The position numbers and the translations under genes are program-made. The notes beneath the pieces were generated by a model, which was not told the origin of the DNA, searched no databases, and saw only the letters and a list, made by a program, of their open reading frames with translations. From the IMG/VR virus record IMGVR_UViG_3300045988_090630: a stretch of DNA of 50,865 nucleotides. One strand, given 5' to 3'. This DNA is from a virus. Below, piece after piece: positions 3,946-12,261 of this stretch; position 1 is the first letter of the stretch, and every line of letters begins with the position of its first letter.

Positions 3946-4499
3946 GCGTGGAATGCCTGAACTTCAGGGTCGAATCCCCGGAGAACTTTGTAAAAATCGC
4001 TTGCACAGTTCTTTTTGGGAAAAGAGAGGGACTGAGCGATTACGCTACAGTTTGGCATGATGTGTTCGATGGCAGTGCCGGGGATCAGCGTTTTCGGCAG
4101 TTCATGGAAGAACTTTTCCCGGATGGCTGCACCATCGGGGAAAAGGAACTGCACCAGTTGACGGACCGTGCGATCCACTACCTAAAAACAGAAACAATTT
4201 GCCTCGACATAAAGGCGGGGCATGATATGGCACAGGCTGTCTTTTGGGTGTATTTCATCCCGGAGCATAAAGTCTACGAGTGCGATTATGGCAGCCATGA
4301 AGAAAAGGTCATCGAGATTCTTACAAATTTCTTCGGGACCGACATAATGAAATACCCGGTGAGCGTTCTGAAAAAGTTTATATTGGGGTCGTTCCGAATT
4401 AAATCTACACAAACGACTGTCGGGTCGATTGCTGCCGATGCCGAATTTATCCAGATGGCGGTATACGGAAGAAGTAAGCCGAGGGGGTCTGTATCGTGA
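3942..4499 (+). CDS. Hypothetical protein (185 aa) in a lower-GC segment
   Basis: Track ORF. The start could instead be GTG 3948. Hand counts give local GC of about 37-52%. Confidence 0.6.
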   Translation: MSVECLNFRVESPENFVKIACTVLFGKREGLSDYATVWHDVFDGSAGDQRFRQFMEELFPDGCTIGEKELHQLTDRAIHYLKTETICLDIKAGHDMAQAVFWVYFIPEHKVYECDYGSHEEKVIEILTNFFGTDIMKYPVSVLKKFILGSFRIKSTQTTVGSIAADAEFIQMAVYGRSKPRGSVS

Positions 4500-5176: not shown

Positions 5177-5893
5177 TTACTCGCTGCAGATCCACTCTGC
5201 ATAGCGGAGATTGAGCCACCCGGCTCCGCTCTTGAGTCTGCCGTAGCTGCCCTGCACCTCGGTGATGGTGAAGATGTTCGGGCCACGGACAACCACGGTG
5301 GCGGGATATTCACTGCCGGGGCCTTTCCGGGCGGCGACCATCGGGACGGTCACCCGAACCAGAAAGGGCGGCTTCGCCACGTTGTACTGGGTCAGGTTGT
5401 ACCGCTCGATCATGGCGCAGAGAACCTCGACGTAGTCCGGGGCGGTGGCGTACCCTCCGTCCTTGATGATCTGGGCGGCGGTGCGGTAGTCCAGCTGCCA
5501 GCGCAGCCCCTTGTACCGCAGGTCGGTGCCGTTCATCGCCCCGGCGAGGTATGCGCTGTGGTCAGCGATGGAGTCCTCGACGCTGGCATACACCCGGAAC
5601 TCGGAGGGCTGCCGGACGGTTTCTCCGCTGCTGGCCTCCGAAGATACCCACGTCATGCTTTTCCCGGTCCATGTGGAGCCGGGCCAGTTGTTGCCAGAGA
5701 GGTTCTTCTTCATCCCGAAGCAGTTGTTGGAGGCCGAGGCCAACGGAGACCGGCCCCAGAAACTTTCGATGATGAACTGGGCGAGGGTGATTGCTGCCGG
5801 GATGCCGGACACGACGTTGTCCAAGGTGGCCAGCGGTGCGACCTTTTTGATGACCGCTTCGTGGGACAAATACTTCAGTTCTTCGGCTTGCAT
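5177..5893 (-). CDS. Endolysin: N-acetylglucosaminidase (FlgJ/mannosyl-glycoprotein endo-beta-GlcNAcase type) plus a C-terminal SH3-like wall-binding domain
   Basis: AITLAQFIIESFWGRSPLASASNNCFGMKK motif. C-terminus GSYGRLKSGAGWLNLRY. Confidence 0.8.
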   Translation of the reverse strand: MQAEELKYLSHEAVIKKVAPLATLDNVVSGIPAAITLAQFIIESFWGRSPLASASNNCFGMKKNLSGNNWPGSTWTGKSMTWVSSEASSGETVRQPSEFRVYASVEDSIADHSAYLAGAMNGTDLRYKGLRWQLDYRTAAQIIKDGGYATAPDYVEVLCAMIERYNLTQYNVAKPPFLVRVTVPMVAARKGPGSEYPATVVVRGPNIFTITEVQGSYGRLKSGAGWLNLRYAEWICSE

Positions 5894-5900
5894 GGTGCCC

Positions 5901-6605
5901 TCACTTTCTGGCGGTGTACTTCAGGCTGATCCATCCGGCCCCGCTCTTCAACTTGCCCCAGACGCCCTGCTGCTGCACGATGGTGAACACCTGCCCCTTG
6001 CTCACAGTCTGGGCGACGGCGTAGTTCGTGCCCGGCCCCCTGCGGACGTTCAGGCTGCTGGCCGTGATCTGAACGATGAACGGCTCCGGGGTGGCCTCTG
6101 CACCCAGCCGCTTGTTGACCTCGCTGGCGATGTACGGGAACTTGCTTTTGAGGTAGGGACCGGGGCAGAGCGTGGACTTGAAGTAGCAGTGCATCGTGAG
6201 GTTCCCGGTCTTGTCGCCGGTGAAGTTGAGCCTCTGGATGCCGTTGCGCTTGCAGATGTCTACGCACAGGTCGATGAGCGAGGCCATCGCCTTGTCGCTC
6301 ACAGTCCAGTTCGGGCCGAGGGTGTTGTTTGCCACCTCGATGGTGACAGCCTGATTGTCATTGTCCGGGCTGCTGGAGGTCCATGCCCGGTCCTTTTCCT
6401 CGACGTACATCCCGATGCGGCCATCGGTGCCGATGCCGTAGTTGGAGCTTGCCTTTCGGCTGGTCGGGGCAAAAACTGCGCCGCACTGCTCCACGGTCAG
6501 ATTGCCAGCCATGTGGTGGATGGTGATCTTGCGGATGGGCTTCTTGCGGGGGCTTGTCCTGTTCGGGCTGATCTTGGTGTAGGAGATCAGAGAACTGTTG
6601 CTCAT
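5901..6605 (-). CDS. Endolysin: N-acetylmuramoyl-L-alanine amidase (Amidase_2/PGRP type) plus a C-terminal SH3-like domain
   Basis: ITIHHMAGN...SSNYGIGTDGRI...AVTIEVAN motifs. C-terminus GVWGKLKSGAGWISLKY. Confidence 0.85.
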   Translation of the reverse strand: MSNSSLISYTKISPNRTSPRKKPIRKITIHHMAGNLTVEQCGAVFAPTSRKASSNYGIGTDGRIGMYVEEKDRAWTSSSPDNDNQAVTIEVANNTLGPNWTVSDKAMASLIDLCVDICKRNGIQRLNFTGDKTGNLTMHCYFKSTLCPGPYLKSKFPYIASEVNKRLGAEATPEPFIVQITASSLNVRRGPGTNYAVAQTVSKGQVFTIVQQQGVWGKLKSGAGWISLKYTARK

Positions 6606-6992: not shown

Positions 6993-7005
6993 AGCTTTCC
7001 TCCTG

Positions 7006-7287
7006 TTAGATGTCGTTCGTTTCGTGTGCCTTTTTGTTCAGGTGCTTCTCCAGCTTGTCGAGCGCATCCTTGCACGGGCCATTGCAGCCCTGCTCGATCA
7101 AGCCCTGCAGGGCACCTTTCAGGCCGTAGCAGAGCAGTGTCTGCTCGTCCTCGATGGACTTGATGAAGTCGCTCTGCTTGCGGTTGATCTGAAAGACCTT
7201 GTAGACGGCCACGATCACACCGATGATCACGCCGATGGACGAGATCACCGATGCGGCTCTGATTACGGTGTCGAGGTCAATGTACAT
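7006..7287 (-). CDS. Small membrane protein (93 aa), possible holin or lysis accessory
   Basis: Internal ATG at 7287 (MYIDLDTVIRAASVISSIGVIIGVIVAVY...) after GGAGGTGGAGG. Has a single TM segment. Confidence 0.55.
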   Translation of the reverse strand: MYIDLDTVIRAASVISSIGVIIGVIVAVYKVFQINRKQSDFIKSIEDEQTLLCYGLKGALQGLIEQGCNGPCKDALDKLEKHLNKKAHETNDI

Positions 7288-7486
7288 CTTCCTCCACCTC
7301 CCCTCTGGCCGGACTGGGCAGAACGGCAGAACAGGCGCACTCAATGTCGTGCAGCGATTCTTCCTCGGCTGCAACGGCACCCAACTGCTGAAGCTGTTCG
7401 TTCTGCGCCTTGGCGATGCGGAGAAGGGTCGCCACGGCATCGACTAAAAAGTCGATGAGTTCCAGCCCGCCAGAGGAGTTAGGCAT
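7277..7486 (-). CDS. Hypothetical protein (69 aa)
   Basis: Track ORF. Its start overlaps the stop of the XkdX-like gene, and its stop overlaps the next start. Confidence 0.45.
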   Translation of the reverse strand: MPNSSGGLELIDFLVDAVATLLRIAKAQNEQLQQLGAVAAEEESLHDIECACSAVLPSPARGEVEEDVH

Positions 7487-7628
7487 CCTTGTAATCCTCG
7501 CCAGTGATGGTTTTGTAGTCGTCCTCGGTGATGGTGCCCTTTTTGACGCGGGCTGCGATGCCAGCCTTGGTCAGACGACCGTGTTCATAGAGGCGGGACA
7601 GGCTCTCAACTAAAGTAGTAGCAGTCAT
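7479..7628 (-). CDS. XkdX-like small phage protein (49 aa), absent from the ORF track
   Basis: Hand translation gives MTATTLVESLSRLYEHGRLTKAGIAARVKKGTITEDDYKTITGEDYKDA. The ...ITxxDYxxITG motif is typical of XkdX. Confidence 0.65.
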   Translation of the reverse strand: MTATTLVESLSRLYEHGRLTKAGIAARVKKGTITEDDYKTITGEDYKDA

Positions 7629-7630
7629 AA

Positions 7631-7894
7631 TTACAAAACCCCCTGTTCGATCAGCTGCATGGTGTAGTCGTCAATGGCCTTGCTGGTGTCGATCTCGGTG
7701 ATCGATGCCAGCATCTGATACTCGGAGAACGTGATCTCCCGGCTCTCGCACTTGTAGTCGGTGTAGGCCGGAGTGCCGTCCTGTTCGGGATGCTCCACGG
7801 CGGTGATGTTGCGCCGCTGGATGTAGGTCTCCGGGCCGATGATCTGGAGTTCTTCAGGCTGACTGGAGCATACTTCGGGTACCCAAGGTTTCAT
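7631..7894 (-). CDS. Hypothetical acidic protein (87 aa) in an XkdW-like position
   Basis: Track ORF. The call rests on position only. It overlaps the RT 3' end by 41 nt. Confidence 0.45.
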   Translation of the reverse strand: MKPWVPEVCSSQPEELQIIGPETYIQRRNITAVEHPEQDGTPAYTDYKCESREITFSEYQMLASITEIDTSKAIDDYTMQLIEQGVL

Positions 7895-9008
7895 GGTTCT
7901 TTTTCCTCCGATCTAATTTTGAGATGATTTCTTTGAGCTTGCCGATCTTCACGTTCGGTTTGATCCTGCGCTTGAAGCACTCGTAGGTGTCGGTGCAGGA
8001 AAACCAGCCCATGTAGCTCAGCATGGCTGCGATGTTGTGGCGGCAGTAGCTACGCCCTGCCTCTTTCGCCTTGTGGAGGTGCCGGGCCGTCTGTGTGGCC
8101 TTGAGCATGATCCGCTTGCGAATGATGGTCTTGTCCCGGTAAAATACAAAGCCCATAAAATCCAGAGGTCGGCCCATTGCTTTCCGCTTGCCCTGATAGA
8201 AGAACTTGCAGACCTGCCTGTTCTTCTTCAGCTTCAAACGGAACCGCTGCCCCAGCATCTTTCGGATCTGAACGTCGGCATTGTGCAGGGCTTTCTTGGC
8301 CGCTGCATAAATTGTCACGTCGTCCATGTACCGCACGAGTTTGTCGAGGCCGAGAGTCTCGGTTATCAACTTGTCGAGCGGCTCCAGCAGGTAGTTGGCC
8401 AGCCATTGCGAAATGTAGAACCCCAGCGGGATGCCCTTTTTGAACTCCCGGAGACACAGCCAGATGACGTGGAGAAACCATTCATCCTTGATCCTGATTG
8501 CAAGCTCCCGCATCAAAACGTCCAGCCGGATGCTGTCGTAAAAATGCCGGATGTCAACTTTCAGGAAGTTCCGGGTCCCTTTCGGGTCTGAACGGAGCCA
8601 CTTCTCAATCCTCCGCTTGGCGTAATGTGCGCCGCGTTTCGGGAAGCTGCCGCAGCTGTACTTGTATGCGGTGCCGGTGATGATCGGCTCCAACACCAGC
8701 ACGATGATGTGGTGCAGCCATTGTTCGTGGATCTCCGGCTCAAAGATCTTCCGAATCTTACCGTGTTCGTAGATGATCTTCGGGGTGTGCTTATGGGGCT
8801 TGAATCCGAGTTTCGGGTTCTGGACTTCTACTCCATCGGGTTTGGTGTTCAAAATCATATCGTGCATCTTCTGAACTTCGTCGTCCAGATGGGCATCGAT
8901 ATACTTTACCTCCGCTCGGCGTGTTTTGCCTTTCCGAAGGTTCTTGTATGCCTTGCGGATTGTTTTCTCCGAAAGCATTGCTTGATACAGATACTTGTAC
9001 TCTTTCAA
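7854..9008 (-). CDS. DGR-type reverse transcriptase (384 aa)
   Basis: IPLGFYISQWLAN ([ILV]GxxxSQ signature) and VRYMDDVTIY (YxDD). Lies 223 nt downstream of the TR. Apparent TTG start. Confidence 0.9.
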   Translation of the reverse strand: MKEYKYLYQAMLSEKTIRKAYKNLRKGKTRRAEVKYIDAHLDDEVQKMHDMILNTKPDGVEVQNPKLGFKPHKHTPKIIYEHGKIRKIFEPEIHEQWLHHIIVLVLEPIITGTAYKYSCGSFPKRGAHYAKRRIEKWLRSDPKGTRNFLKVDIRHFYDSIRLDVLMRELAIRIKDEWFLHVIWLCLREFKKGIPLGFYISQWLANYLLEPLDKLITETLGLDKLVRYMDDVTIYAAAKKALHNADVQIRKMLGQRFRLKLKKNRQVCKFFYQGKRKAMGRPLDFMGFVFYRDKTIIRKRIMLKATQTARHLHKAKEAGRSYCRHNIAAMLSYMGWFSCTDTYECFKRRIKPNVKIGKLKEIISKLDRRKKNHETLGTRSMLQSA

Positions 9009-9231
9009 CTTGTACGCCTATAAGATATTCTTTCTTCTATCTCCTGCACCCGGCAGGTGCGACCGCTTTACCGGGTGCCCTGTATCGGACCTATTTCCAC
9101 TCATCTTTCCAGTTATGGCGAGTAAGCCGTATTTCAACGGTCAGCGGTGTAGGCTGCGCCCATCATGGCGCAGTGCATAAAATGCAGAGTGCGGCGGCTT
9201 TGGCGTAGGATGTAGATTGCAGATAGAATCA
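9009..9231 (-). ncRNA. Non-coding spacer between TR and RT, expected to be part of the DGR template RNA
   Basis: No credible ORF. Two hairpins: CTGCGCC / GGCGCAG (9154-9173) and GCACCCGG / CCGGGTGC (9046-9078). Confidence 0.5.
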
Positions 9232-9337
9232 GGCCGAGCCGATGTTCCAGTTCGCGTTGCCAGCGTCATTGTTCAGATTGATGCACCGAGGCCCCGTATT
9301 GGTGCCATTGTTGCAATTACCGAACCGTAGGCCCACC
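9232..9337 (-). repeat. DGR template repeat (TR), 106 bp
   Basis: Aligns ungapped with 9489-9594. All 15 mismatches are at TR adenines in the coding sense. In the VR frame the variable sites are AAY codons. Confidence 0.92.
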
Positions 9338-9403
9338 GAAGGTGACGCCGCCGCACTCCCCTTATTTATTTTTCAAAAATGAATAAGCTGTATTTGCTCC
9401 ACT

Positions 9404-9432
9404 GGGGGAGTTGCGCTTTGCAGCGCACCCCC
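9404..9432 (-). promoter_or_regulatory. GC-rich hairpin just downstream of VR and the target stop codon
   Basis: GGGGG..TGCGC / GCGCA CCCCC. A second element, CCCC-CTGC-GGGG, lies at about 9436-9448. Confidence 0.5.
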
Positions 9433-9452
9433 AGACCCCCCTGCGGGGCGGT

Positions 9453-10700
9453 TTACACCGCCACGCCTACAGGTGGTAACAGGAGAATGGCCGAGCCGAT
9501 GTACCAGTCCGCGTAGCCAGCGTCAACGTCCAGATCGAGGCACCGAGGCCCCGTACCGGTGCCATCGGAGCAAGCACCGAACCGTAGGCCCACCTTTGTG
9601 CCTTCGGCATGGTAATAGACACCGTCGCAGCCGCCGAGGACGGTACTGCCGTTGAACGGCTCGATTGCAACGGCTCCGAAACCGGGCACCGTGGTGTAGT
9701 GGGAGGGGTAGTCCCATTTGTCCTGATCGGTGGTCGGCAGGACGATGCCGGTGTTGTGGTAGGTCGCCCCGGTCACGTCGTAGGTGTAGTTCTTGCTGAC
9801 CTTGTAGTCGCCGTTCACCAGCAGGGTGTACGGATCGCGCATCCACTGCTGGTAGCTGCCCAGCACGATGGAGTGGAAGATCTTATTCAGGCTCTTCTGG
9901 TCGGTGGTGGCGTAGAACTGGCCACCGCCCACCACGGCGTTCTGCTTGACACCCATGGTCGGGGTCAGGCTCTGGTCGTAGCCGGAGCAGTTGCCGTATC
10001 CGAACACGTCCTGAATGTTGGAGTTCTTGCCGAACATGAGCAGCAGGTCTGCGATGGTCTCGACGATTGCGCCGCCGAGGAACTTGGCACGGTTGCCGAC
10101 CGCATCGATGGCGGTTTTCTGGGCGGCTGTGGTCTTGTTGTAGTCGGGCTGGAGACCGGACAGGGAGCGCATCTTGTCCTCGACGATGGAGCCGTAGAAC
10201 ATGGGCAGCCATACGCCCTCCAGTTCCTTGTTGTCCGGGTCGATGAAACCGACAGGCTCGTAACCCTCCCGCTTGGTCAGACTGAACTTCACGATGCGAT
10301 CATCGCCGACGACGGTCTCGTTCTTGTAGATCTTCTGGAGCCAGCTGAATGCGCCGCCGTCGTAGGAGGTGTTGGCCACGTCCGAAGCGGAGCCGTCGCT
10401 GTACTTTTTGGAGTAGTCGTTGTCCTGAAGGCGGTAGTCCGGGGTGCCGTCCGAACGGACCATGTAGGGCTTGTTGGCTTCCAGAATCTCAAAACCAGCC
10501 CAGTCGTTCAGGGAGATGCTGCCGTTGGTGTTGCGGCTCACCGGGGTGAAGTTCTTATTCAGACCGATGTACTCGATGCGCTGCGTCGGGCTGAGAATGT
10601 TCATGTGTTCGATGAAGCCGTAGATCGGATCGACCGCCAGAATATTGTAGATCTTGTCCAGCGTTTCCTTGTCGGCGATATAGACTTTTTCTCCTGCCAT
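9453..10700 (-). CDS. Tail fibre / receptor-binding protein, the DGR target, with a C-terminal variable region
   Basis: Sits in the tail-fibre position after the baseplate genes. The last ~50 aa (…LRFGACSDGTGTGPRCLDLDVDAGYADWYIGSA…) are encoded by the VR. Confidence 0.85.
   Translation of the reverse strand: MAGEKVYIADKETLDKIYNILAVDPIYGFIEHMNILSPTQRIEYIGLNKNFTPVSRNTNGSISLNDWAGFEILEANKPYMVRSDGTPDYRLQDNDYSKKYSDGSASDVANTSYDGGAFSWLQKIYKNETVVGDDRIVKFSLTKREGYEPVGFIDPDNKELEGVWLPMFYGSIVEDKMRSLSGLQPDYNKTTAAQKTAIDAVGNRAKFLGGAIVETIADLLLMFGKNSNIQDVFGYGNCSGYDQSLTPTMGVKQNAVVGGGQFYATTDQKSLNKIFHSIVLGSYQQWMRDPYTLLVNGDYKVSKNYTYDVTGATYHNTGIVLPTTDQDKWDYPSHYTTVPGFGAVAIEPFNGSTVLGGCDGVYYHAEGTKVGLRFGACSDGTGTGPRCLDLDVDAGYADWYIGSAILLLPPVGVAV
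9489..9594 (-). repeat. DGR variable repeat (VR), 106 bp, inside the target gene 3' end
   Basis: 91 of 106 positions identical to the TR. Differences occur only opposite TR adenines. Confidence 0.92.
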
Positions 10701-11251
10701 TATTCCGTTACCTCCTGAAAATAAATAAGGCCGTTGTCGATGCCGATGATGTACTTCTTGCCGGTGGTGTCATCATAGGCGTACTGCTTGTTCGGCATAT
10801 GGATCTTGACGTCCTTGGCGTTGCTGACCTCCAGCAAGAAGTCGATGGTGATCGTGGACGGCAGCAGGTCGTTGAAAGCGGGCATATAGTCCCACTGGTC
10901 CGTTTCTGCGATGGCGAGTGCGTAGAGAATCTCACCCTCATCCGGGTCGGTGGCGAAGATGCCGATCTCCTTGACGTAGTAGCCGTTCTTCAGGTCGCCG
11001 CTGTCCTGATGGTTCGACATGATGAACTTCACAAAGACGTTGGTGGTATTCTGAACGGTGGTCGTGATCAGGGGGAAGGTCTGCTTCTGCGACTTGAGGG
11101 CGGTGCGGGTGGTGAGATCCTCGCCGCTCGCATAGCTGCCGTCACCTGCTGCCGCTTTGGTCAGTTTGATGGTGCAGCGTCCGGCCTGTGCCTTGGCGAG
11201 AAGGGCGATGCCCTTTTTCGTCAAAACGGATTCCTTGAAAATTCCGGCCAT
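10700..11251 (-). CDS. Tail-collar / short tail-fibre N-terminal-domain protein (183 aa)
   Basis: The ATG at 11251 follows AGGAGG. MAGIFKESVLTKKGIALLAKAQAG...KLTKAAAGDG resembles P2 gpH / tail-collar N-termini. Confidence 0.6.
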   Translation of the reverse strand: MAGIFKESVLTKKGIALLAKAQAGRCTIKLTKAAAGDGSYASGEDLTTRTALKSQKQTFPLITTTVQNTTNVFVKFIMSNHQDSGDLKNGYYVKEIGIFATDPDEGEILYALAIAETDQWDYMPAFNDLLPSTITIDFLLEVSNAKDVKIHMPNKQYAYDDTTGKKYIIGIDNGLIYFQEVTE

Positions 11252-11265
11252 TGTGGTACCTCCTG

Positions 11266-12261
11266 TCAAAGAATGATGGTGTGTGAATTGGCTGCGGCGG
11301 CTGCCGGGACACTCTGCGCAGCGAGGGCTTTCAACTCGACATTGTTGAAATTGTTGAGAATGCGAACGGTGCGGCTCTCAACAAAAAACGCCGAGGTGAC
11401 GGTCTGCGCTGCTGCGTTGCCCCGCTGCCGGGATGCAGCGTGGTTCAGGATGTTTGTGCTGGGAGCCGAAAAGCCGCCAGCGGGGATAAATACTGCACCC
11501 TGCGCTGCTGTGGTGCGGGCGGGGGTGTGGTTGTAGATATGGGCTGCCGGGGCCGCTGCCATTGCTGCAGCGGAGGTCTCCACGAGATCTGCGTTCCCGG
11601 TTCTGCCCTGCGGGTGGTTGGTGATCGCTGTGGACGGTGCAGCGGCGATGGCTGCTGCCGTCAATTCCTGAAGGCTGCCGCTGGCCATGGCCTTGTGATG
11701 GTTCAGCACCGGGCGGTGCGGTTCCGAAAGAGACCCGGCTGCAGCGTACATCTGCATCTTCTCGTGTCGCTCGATCAGGATTCTGCGGATGTGGGAGCGG
11801 ACGTTCTTTACCCGCTTGACCACCCGCGTGAAAAAGGTGGCGGCATCCGGGGTCAACTGGCCGCTGGTCACAATGTCGAACGTGCCAGGCTCCCTCGGTT
11901 CCTCGGTGAAGTCCGGCCACTCGACCACATCGCCCTCTCCGAAGACTGCCTGAATCAATTCCTCGACCGCTGACACGGTTCCGGCTCTCGCTGCCCACAG
12001 GAAACTCTTTTTGATGATTTCCCGCTTGGCATCGACGCTCAGACTGTCGACGTAGTAAGGTGTGCGGAGTTCCACGGCCAGAACGTCCAGAATGCTCTCC
12101 GGCAGGTCATCAATGACGGACATGGTCCGGGTCTGGGCCAGTTCCTGCATGATGCGCCGCTTCTCCTGCAATATGGCGTAGGAGAAAGCGATCACCTCCG
12201 GGTCGTACCTATAGGCATTGTTGAGCAGGTCGGTGATCTGGCCGTTGTAGAGATCAGTCAT
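11266..12261 (-). CDS. Baseplate protein, P2 gpI-like, with a repetitive C-terminal extension
   Basis: Follows the gpJ-like gene. The N-terminal ~170 aa look gpI-like. The C-terminus has about 5 repeats of a ~30-aa unit starting [IV]xNH. Confidence 0.65.
   Translation of the reverse strand: MTDLYNGQITDLLNNAYRYDPEVIAFSYAILQEKRRIMQELAQTRTMSVIDDLPESILDVLAVELRTPYYVDSLSVDAKREIIKKSFLWAARAGTVSAVEELIQAVFGEGDVVEWPDFTEEPREPGTFDIVTSGQLTPDAATFFTRVVKRVKNVRSHIRRILIERHEKMQMYAAAGSLSEPHRPVLNHHKAMASGSLQELTAAAIAAAPSTAITNHPQGRTGNADLVETSAAAMAAAPAAHIYNHTPARTTAAQGAVFIPAGGFSAPSTNILNHAASRQRGNAAAQTVTSAFFVESRTVRILNNFNNVELKALAAQSVPAAAAANSHTIIL

Follow-up and report, generated by a model that had tools for sequence, protein, structure and literature searches.

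The viral genome analysed here (IMG/VR virus record IMGVR_UViG_3300045988_090630; 50,865 nucleotides, referred to below as the window) carries on its minus strand a diversity-generating retroelement (DGR) set into the tail module. Along that strand, a baseplate J gene, a P2 gpI-like gene, and a 189-amino-acid open reading frame (ORF) with a tail-collar N-terminal domain lead to the DGR target, a 415-amino-acid protein (9453..10700) that forms the C-terminal, receptor-binding part of a split tail fibre and whose gene contains the variable repeat (VR; 9489..9594, codons 369 to 404 of 415). The target is followed by the template repeat (TR; 9232..9337), a 384-amino-acid reverse transcriptase (RT; 7854..9008), an 87-amino-acid ORF, XkdX, a holin, and two endolysins. 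The VR occupies the 3' end of a gene in the tail module, preceded by an ORF with a tail-collar N-terminal domain, which agrees with a preliminary description of this DNA, made from the sequence alone, that had assigned the target to the tail-fibre slot. The window is 96.8 to 96.9% identical to Faecalibacterium phage FP_Epona (MG711462 / NC_047910) over 91 to 93% of its length, and ~98% identical in the DGR region, a nucleotide near-identity by which the phage would be placed in Eponavirus. The DGR is already known, having been published for Epona in 2018 (PMC5883640) and annotated in GenBank, and finding it here adds nothing biologically by itself.

The repeats give the clearest record of how this element operates. 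TR and VR align on the minus strand without gaps over 106 nucleotides at 86% identity, with 15 mismatches at plus-strand coordinates 9246, 9252, 9258, 9269, 9270, 9273, 9279, 9282, 9299, 9300, 9309, 9311, 9312, 9317, and 9318. The preliminary description had given these repeat boundaries, the ungapped 106-base-pair alignment, and the 15 positions, and all proved exact on base-by-base comparison. It had also claimed that each mismatch falls on a TR adenine in the coding sense, and this is so: the TR contains 26 adenines and 80 other bases, and the VR differs at 15 of the 26 and at none of the 80 (hypergeometric p = 1.2e-11 for 15/15 mismatches on adenine). The TR adenines occupy positions 1 and 2 of ten AAY codons and fall further in two ATC codons and in ACC, ACG, and GAC. 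All 15 changes hit codon position 1 or 2, spread over nine AAY codons and one ATC codon. Translated in the target frame, as the earlier reading had done correctly, the TR gives SVGLRFGNCNNGTNTGPRCINLNNDAGNANWNIGSA and the VR gives KVGLRFGACSDGTGTGPRCLDLDVDAGYADWYIGSA.

Homology between the two copies breaks off sharply at either end, and a repeat search found this pair to be the only long direct repeat within 7000-12000. When the TR adenines were replaced by N, the resulting pattern occurred in the window in two copies only, with none expected from 100 shuffles. Neither this adenine-masked pattern nor a low-stringency blastn search with the TR revealed a third repeat copy or a second target in the window. 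The 3' end of the homology is GC-rich (ATCGGCTCGGCC; minus strand, 9489..9500 in the VR and 9232-9243 in the TR) and resembles an initiation of mutagenic homing (IMH) site. Past this segment the flanks differ, the VR continuing as ATTCTCCTG... and the TR as TGATTCTATC..., just as IMH and IMH* diverge in their flanks in BPP-1 (PMC8632793). By analogy, 9489..9500 may serve as an IMH-like guide.

The RT, a basic protein with an isoelectric point of 10, begins 223 nucleotides downstream of the TR. It contains IPLGFYISQWLAN and YMDD, the motifs that had led the preliminary description to recognise the 384-amino-acid ORF as a DGR enzyme, and it matches Pfam RVT_1 (E = 8.5e-16) and PHROG 1423, a phage RT family (E = 2e-101). 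Alignment with bRT, the RT of BPP-1 (PDB 8ub7; E = 1.3e-10), places GIPLGFYISQ over GIPIGSLTSQ and RYMDD over RYMDD, with LGFYISQ falling on bRT residues I181-Q187. The equivalent of R74, a residue that promotes adenine mutagenesis in bRT (PMC7826257), is kept. A tblastn search with BPP-1 Brt matched the window RT at E = 3.5e-13 and 22% identity. As RTs of DGRs carry the signature [I/V/L]GxxxSQ in place of the QGxxxSP of group II and retroviral RTs (PMC7826257), the LGxxxSQ signature, YMDD, and the alignment with bRT together type the protein, at the level of sequence, as a DGR RT. Models of other RT classes fit poorly: the group II RT/maturase model TIGR04416 gave 98.3 bits against a cut-off of 300, the retron RT model NF038233 gave 48 bits against 235, and the scores with models of defence-associated reverse transcriptases (DRT) were far under their cut-offs. 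A search with Rfam found neither a group II intron RNA nor an msr RNA in the window.

Comparison with Epona shows where the element has changed. Over 3.7 kb around the DGR, the gene order is the same, the 106-nucleotide TRs agree base for base (0/106 differences), and the RTs are 99% identical (0.8% different), while the target gene outside the VR differs by 1.4%. The VRs differ at 13 of 106 positions, and 13/13 of these are TR-adenine positions, which would make the window phage another receptor-binding variant of a protein annotated in Epona's GenBank record as 'BPP-1-like major tropism determinant protein'. The remaining differences from Epona are substitutions scattered elsewhere in the window.

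The same bias extends to more distant relatives. Homologues of the RT at 37-99% identity were gathered both from viral contigs and from Faecalibacterium, Lachnospiraceae, Oscillospiraceae, and other genomes, and a blind DNA self-comparison found a VR/TR pair upstream of every homologue with enough upstream sequence. In 56 distinct VR/TR pairs, 694 of 726 mismatches lie on TR adenines, so that 50.5% of adenines are changed compared with 0.67% of other bases; the first figure agrees with the ~52% misincorporation measured for bRT (PMC7826257). Given the low group II and retron scores, the Epona comparison, and these 56 pairs, neither of the objections that the preliminary description had raised against itself, an RT grouping with group II intron or retron enzymes and VR differences not specific to adenine, holds. 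The target belongs to a 90%-identity cluster of 6418 distinct sequences. Among 16 full-length targets (cluster members plus Epona and the window), 5-12 different residues occur at each AAY site and 3-4 at the two ATC sites, against a scaffold that hardly varies and shows only sporadic two-state changes. Diversification at the TR-adenine codons is thus evident at the population level from comparison of these sequences.

Sequence searches say little about the fold of the target. It matches PHROG 5302 'tail protein' (E = 1e-111); no Pfam family matched even at E = 10, NCBIfam likewise gave none, the protein did not fall within the FGE-sulfatase family or related C-type-lectin families, and no PDB entry matched by sequence with either the single sequence or a 39-sequence profile. 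For the Epona DGR, Cornuault et al. 2018 (PMC5883640) report that a TR/VR pair is present and an Avd homologue absent, and they describe the target as FGE/Mtd-like, the FGE-superfamily similarity having been found with HHsearch-type tools. The preliminary description had suggested looking for a C-type-lectin fold in the target, and structure prediction points to one. A first AlphaFold2 model, for which the alignment was shallow (sequences 64-98% identical), had a predicted local distance difference test score (pLDDT) of 60.7 and a weak match to TaqVP (E = 0.01). With homologues of ~30% identity in the alignment, a second model reached a pLDDT of 89.3 and a predicted template modelling score (pTM) of 0.90. 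Foldseek searches of the PDB with this model were significant only for three TaqVP chains (E = 4e-9 to 3e-8, probability 1.0), with BPP-1 Mtd variants (E ~0.1) and then FGE-like EgtB following below significance. Against BFVD, a database of predicted viral structures, the model matched 'tail collar fiber proteins' with template modelling (TM) scores of up to 0.87. These predictions support a C-type-lectin-type DGR variable protein fold for the target. TaqVP (Thermus aquaticus, PDB 5VF4) has such a DGR-diversified fold and aligns with a TM score of 0.45-0.51 over ~380 columns, but its sequence is only 12% identical to that of the target, and it is cellular, whereas the target is part of a phage tail fibre.

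Two structured elements lie in the transcript around the TR. The first fills the spacer between TR and RT (9035..9151, minus strand), where a covariance model identifies Rfam RF03025 'RT-4 RNA' at 127.3 bits against a gathering score of 73.5, covering model positions 1-118 of 118. RT-4 occupies the same slot in 15/15 relatives tested with an RT identity of at least 46%, and in two relatives with an RT identity of 37-43% the slot is taken by RT-18 (RF03021; L059:3900-3976 and L063:3918-3995). In every relative examined, these RNAs lie between a bona fide TR and a DGR RT. RF03022 (Phage_DGR) matched nothing in the window, whether the gathering threshold or a limit of E <= 1 was applied; as a control, the TR-brt spacer of BPP-1 matched RF03022 (RT-10) at 104.7 bits. 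Weinberg et al. 2017 (PMC5737381) found that the RT motifs adjoin RT genes, tied only RT-10 (now Phage_DGR) to DGRs, and speculated that some of the other RT motifs act in DGRs; neither the naming in Rfam nor the searchable literature assigns a function to RT-4 or RT-18.

The second element is a helix of 13-15 base pairs that brackets the TR, with its 5' arm (GGGGAGUGCGGCGGC) at 9347..9361 and its 3' arm (GCCGCCGCACUCU.., paired over 9186-9198) at 9184..9198, both on the minus strand and identified by pairing and covariation. Across 14 aligned relatives, 94.8% of cells are paired and 11/15 pairs have changed on both sides; none of 500 shuffles scored as high, and slid controls were 40-50% paired. 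In position and length this helix corresponds to the avd:Sp 'cPRT Stop' duplex of BPP-1, which is reported to be conserved in 207 DGRs with Avd at an average of 13 base pairs, and we consider the two probable equivalents. A run of adenines directly 5' of the 3' arm (9199..9201, minus strand), kept in most relatives, is placed like Sp A56 in BPP-1 and is by its position a candidate cis-priming adenosine (bioRxiv 10.1101/2023.10.23.563531 for both BPP-1 features). Between the 3' arm and RT-4, the Epona lineage alone has a 7-base-pair hairpin, CTGCGCC-ATGATG-GGCGCAG (9154..9173, minus strand); in relatives outside this lineage, the 3' arm (..UUCCUA) joins RT-4 (CACCGCUG) directly.

A further structure lies in the DNA past the target stop codon, where a hairpin at 9402..9434 (minus strand; DNA fold z = -3.7) consists of CTGGGGG, the inner stem TGCGCT, the loop GCAA, AGCGCA, a 3-nucleotide bulge, and CCCCCAG. 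All 20/20 relatives have it and keep the outer stem CTGGGGG/CCCCCAG, whereas the inner stem differs among them through compensatory changes, with 5 of 10 pairs changed on both sides. In BPP-1 a hairpin or cruciform is required for target recognition (PMC3240598), and on that analogy the hairpin here is a candidate for the same function; a terminator scan found no terminator at 9402-9434. Ahead of the hairpin, a run of six Gs (9436-9441, minus strand) forms the first G-run of a GGGGG(G)-N3-GGGGG arrangement, is invariant in the 20 relatives, including those with RTs only 37-46% identical, and is unpaired in the consensus fold. The RNA motif, the helix around the TR, and the hairpin all go unmentioned in the accessible part of the Epona paper (PMC5883640).

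BPP-1 is a Bordetella podovirus and the window phage a Firmicutes myovirus, and the two DGRs share a plan. Both transfer sequence from TR to VR with adenine specificity, and in both the VR lies at the C-terminal end of a receptor-binding protein of the tail fibre. Both have IGxxxSQ or LGxxxSQ together with YMDD in the RT, a GC-rich 3' repeat end, a hairpin downstream of the VR, a structured spacer RNA between TR and RT, and a duplex with arms upstream and downstream of the TR. They differ in that the window has no avd and a short gap between VR and TR, where BPP-1 has its 387-nucleotide avd gene; in the spacer RNA, RF03022 in BPP-1 and RF03025 in the window; in the RT, so distant from Brt; and in the target, which has no detectable sequence similarity to Mtd. 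The window hairpin also stands at a greater distance from the VR, with 12 more codons in between, and has another loop.

With high confidence, we identify the region as an active-type DGR belonging to an Epona-like myophage or prophage of Faecalibacterium. An RNA transcribed over the 5' stem arm, the TR, a short spacer, the 3' stem arm, and RT-4 (roughly 9035-9361) would fold so that the bracketing duplex lies on one side of a looped-out TR and the RT-4 domain on the other. If the BPP-1 mechanism is a guide, the RT would prime in cis beside the stop duplex, copy the TR into complementary DNA (cDNA), and terminate at the duplex, reading G, C, and U faithfully and misincorporating opposite about half of the adenines. 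With the GC-rich 3' end common to both repeats as a guide, and probably the conserved downstream hairpin as well, the cDNA would then replace the VR of the tail-fibre tip gene at its 3' end; this integration step, and the parts given here to RT-4 and the hairpin, are likewise modelled on BPP-1. Because the TR adenines lie at positions 1 and 2 of AAY codons (plus the ATC, ACC, ACG, and GAC codons), the outcome could be up to ~6e14 receptor-binding variants on an invariant C-type-lectin-like scaffold, with which the phage could follow changes in host receptors. The RT, without an encoded Avd, presumably works with its own RNA alone or with an unrecognised factor.

Several observations weigh against this interpretation. 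The minus strand was scanned for a promoter that could drive the TR-RT RNA, and none turned up. Judged by raw sequence score, the group II intron RT GsI-IIC (E = 1.6e-13) and bRT are about equally near to the window RT. The hairpin lies ~54 nucleotides from the VR end and has a GCAA loop, whereas published phage examples lie at 4-34 base pairs and have a GRNA loop. The evidence for diversification comes from comparison between relatives. Finally, more than 70% of DGRs have Avd as an accessory gene, and others have HRDC, MSL, or CH1; here, tblastn and phmmer searches with BPP-1 Avd found no match in the six frames and 424 ORFs of the window, and a Pfam scan of 50 small window ORFs found no Avd-like or HRDC family. 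As bRT makes no cDNA without Avd in vitro (PMC8632793) and no Avd was detected, the BPP-1 mechanism does not transfer to this element unchanged. The preliminary description had called the DGR complete, which is right for RT, TR, and VR but not for Avd or any other recognised accessory gene. Avd is typical of DGRs but not universal (PMC8632793). Searched against the phage collection, BPP-1 Avd matched Bordetella phages only, and it therefore provided no broader Avd profile.

One alternative leaves the DGR real and alters only its mechanism: the RT would need an accessory not recognisable by sequence, encoded elsewhere in the phage or by the host, in the role of Avd. The strict dependence of bRT on Avd favours such a factor, Cornuault et al. 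(PMC5883640) raise 'another small protein' as a possible player in Epona-type DGRs, and about half of the small ORFs in the window have no Pfam match. Set against this are the failure of tblastn, phmmer, and Pfam to find anything Avd-like and the lack of space around the repeats. The VR-TR gap is 151 nucleotides here and 112-165 nucleotides in relatives, and the TR-RT gap is 124-262 nucleotides, so that there is no room for a gene at either place in any of ~60 relatives. The sole small ORF consistently beside the RT is an acidic tail-module gene, described below. On balance we think a hidden accessory somewhat less probable than its absence, while regarding it as a serious contender.

That small ORF, orf87 (7631-7894, 87 amino acids), overlaps the 3' end of the RT gene by 41 nucleotides and follows the RT in nearly all relatives. 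As a substitute for Avd, and as a DGR accessory altogether, it was rejected on its acidic isoelectric point (4.2, compared with 9.6 for Avd), on a 23-sequence profile that matched nothing in the PDB, and on the evidence of six RT-less relatives that keep target, orf87, and xkdX adjacent; a profile search for distant homologues gave close relatives only among the matches listed. In these IMG/VR contigs (L117, L118, L125, L126, L129, and L130), which have neither TR nor RT, homologues of orf87 and xkdX directly follow a target gene 60-64% identical to that of the window, and one of the contigs, L117, still has the GGGGGGTCTGGGGG hairpin. Since orf87 stays beside the tail-fibre gene in genomes without an RT, it belongs to the tail module. 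The retained target-orf87-xkdX order also means that TR, spacer, and RT come and go together, and that a frozen VR stays behind.

Absence of Avd may instead be a property of a whole lineage. We tentatively propose, as a hypothesis we hold to be less likely true than false, a large clade of Avd-less DGRs in phages and prophages of gut Clostridia (Faecalibacterium, Lachnospiraceae, and Oscillospiraceae), with RT-4 as spacer RNA, RT-18 in a sister clade, and a BPP-1-like stop duplex kept. In such a clade the RT would carry out cis-primed adenine mutagenesis with RNA alone, the structured RNA, or else small extensions of the RT, standing in for the Avd scaffold. Were this true, RT-4 and RT-18 would gain a function, and Avd would not be a universal requirement of DGR reverse transcription. 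For DGR-based directed evolution, a naturally Avd-independent pair of RT and RNA would also offer a simpler chassis. Whichever way this is decided, three things are added here to the published element. RT-4 and RT-18 are linked to the TR-RT spacer of DGRs, a connection not found in the searchable literature. A covarying TR-bracketing duplex is present in Avd-less DGRs, where the published duplex survey covered Avd-containing DGRs only. And the unit that is gained or lost consists of TR, spacer RNA, and RT, with the tail-fibre stop codon on one side and the next tail gene on the other.

A different question is whether the active-type DGR proposed here is still at work, or whether the window holds a recently inactivated relic whose VR pattern records past activity. 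Relics of this sort do occur among relatives: L117, L118, and L126 have lost RT and TR and keep a frozen VR, and in another Epona-like genome (L100) the TR is depleted to 16 adenines. In the window, the RT is full length, 98-99% identical to those of relatives, and intact at YMDD and LGxxxSQ; the TR matches that of Epona exactly, with 26/26 adenines kept; no damage is seen in RT-4, the bracketing helix, or the hairpin; and the VR differs from the VRs of near-identical genomes at adenine sites only. Inactivation therefore seems improbable to us. That the repeats are an ordinary duplication, diverged by point mutation or recombination beside an unrelated group II intron or retron RT, is an explanation we regard as virtually excluded, for although the best PDB sequence match of the RT is a group II intron RT and its best NCBIfam match the group II RT/maturase model, that match and the retron score fall far below their cut-offs (98 vs 300 and 48 vs 235 bits), neither a group II intron nor an msr RNA turns up in the window with Rfam, the RT has LGxxxSQ and not QGxxxSP, and the confinement of mismatches to adenine (p = 1.2e-11) recurs in 56 independent pairs.

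The Epona-like L100 (ENA ERZ28618259 scaffold_369, TR at 4364-4469) deserves a separate description. Its TR, with 16 adenines compared with 26 here, reads as an already diversified VR (GGCNDGTSTGPRCIGLGNDAGWSNWN), and its VR differs from its own TR at five sites, two of them not at adenines. This TR looks overwritten or eroded, and it also accounts for the 'GWS' variants that are frequent in the target cluster. Target clusters also stand out by their numbers. At 90% identity, P0001, P0264, and P0269 hold 6418, 9645, and 15513 distinct members, far above neighbouring clusters, and cluster size alone flags DGR targets. Many IMG/VR contigs of the same phage (L003-L012) end 183-445 nucleotides upstream of the RT start, in the TR or in the TR-VR spacer, which is consistent with assemblies breaking at a repeat with a hypervariable copy.

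Two observations concern the genes on either side of the DGR. Upstream, the tail-collar ORF (10700-11269, minus strand) and the target (9453-10700) overlap by one base (TAATG) and map to PHROG 5302 at parts 2-133 (N-terminal) and 127-546 (C-terminal), respectively, and the structural neighbours of the target are single proteins of 500-700 amino acids named 'tail collar fiber protein'. Because one profile covers both ORFs and the neighbours are single proteins, the tail fibre is split into two ORFs in this phage. Just downstream of the holin, the endolysin genes lie next to each other on the minus strand (5177-5893 and 5901-6605); one encodes a glucosaminidase by Pfam, and the second is annotated in Epona as an amidase with SH3 domains.

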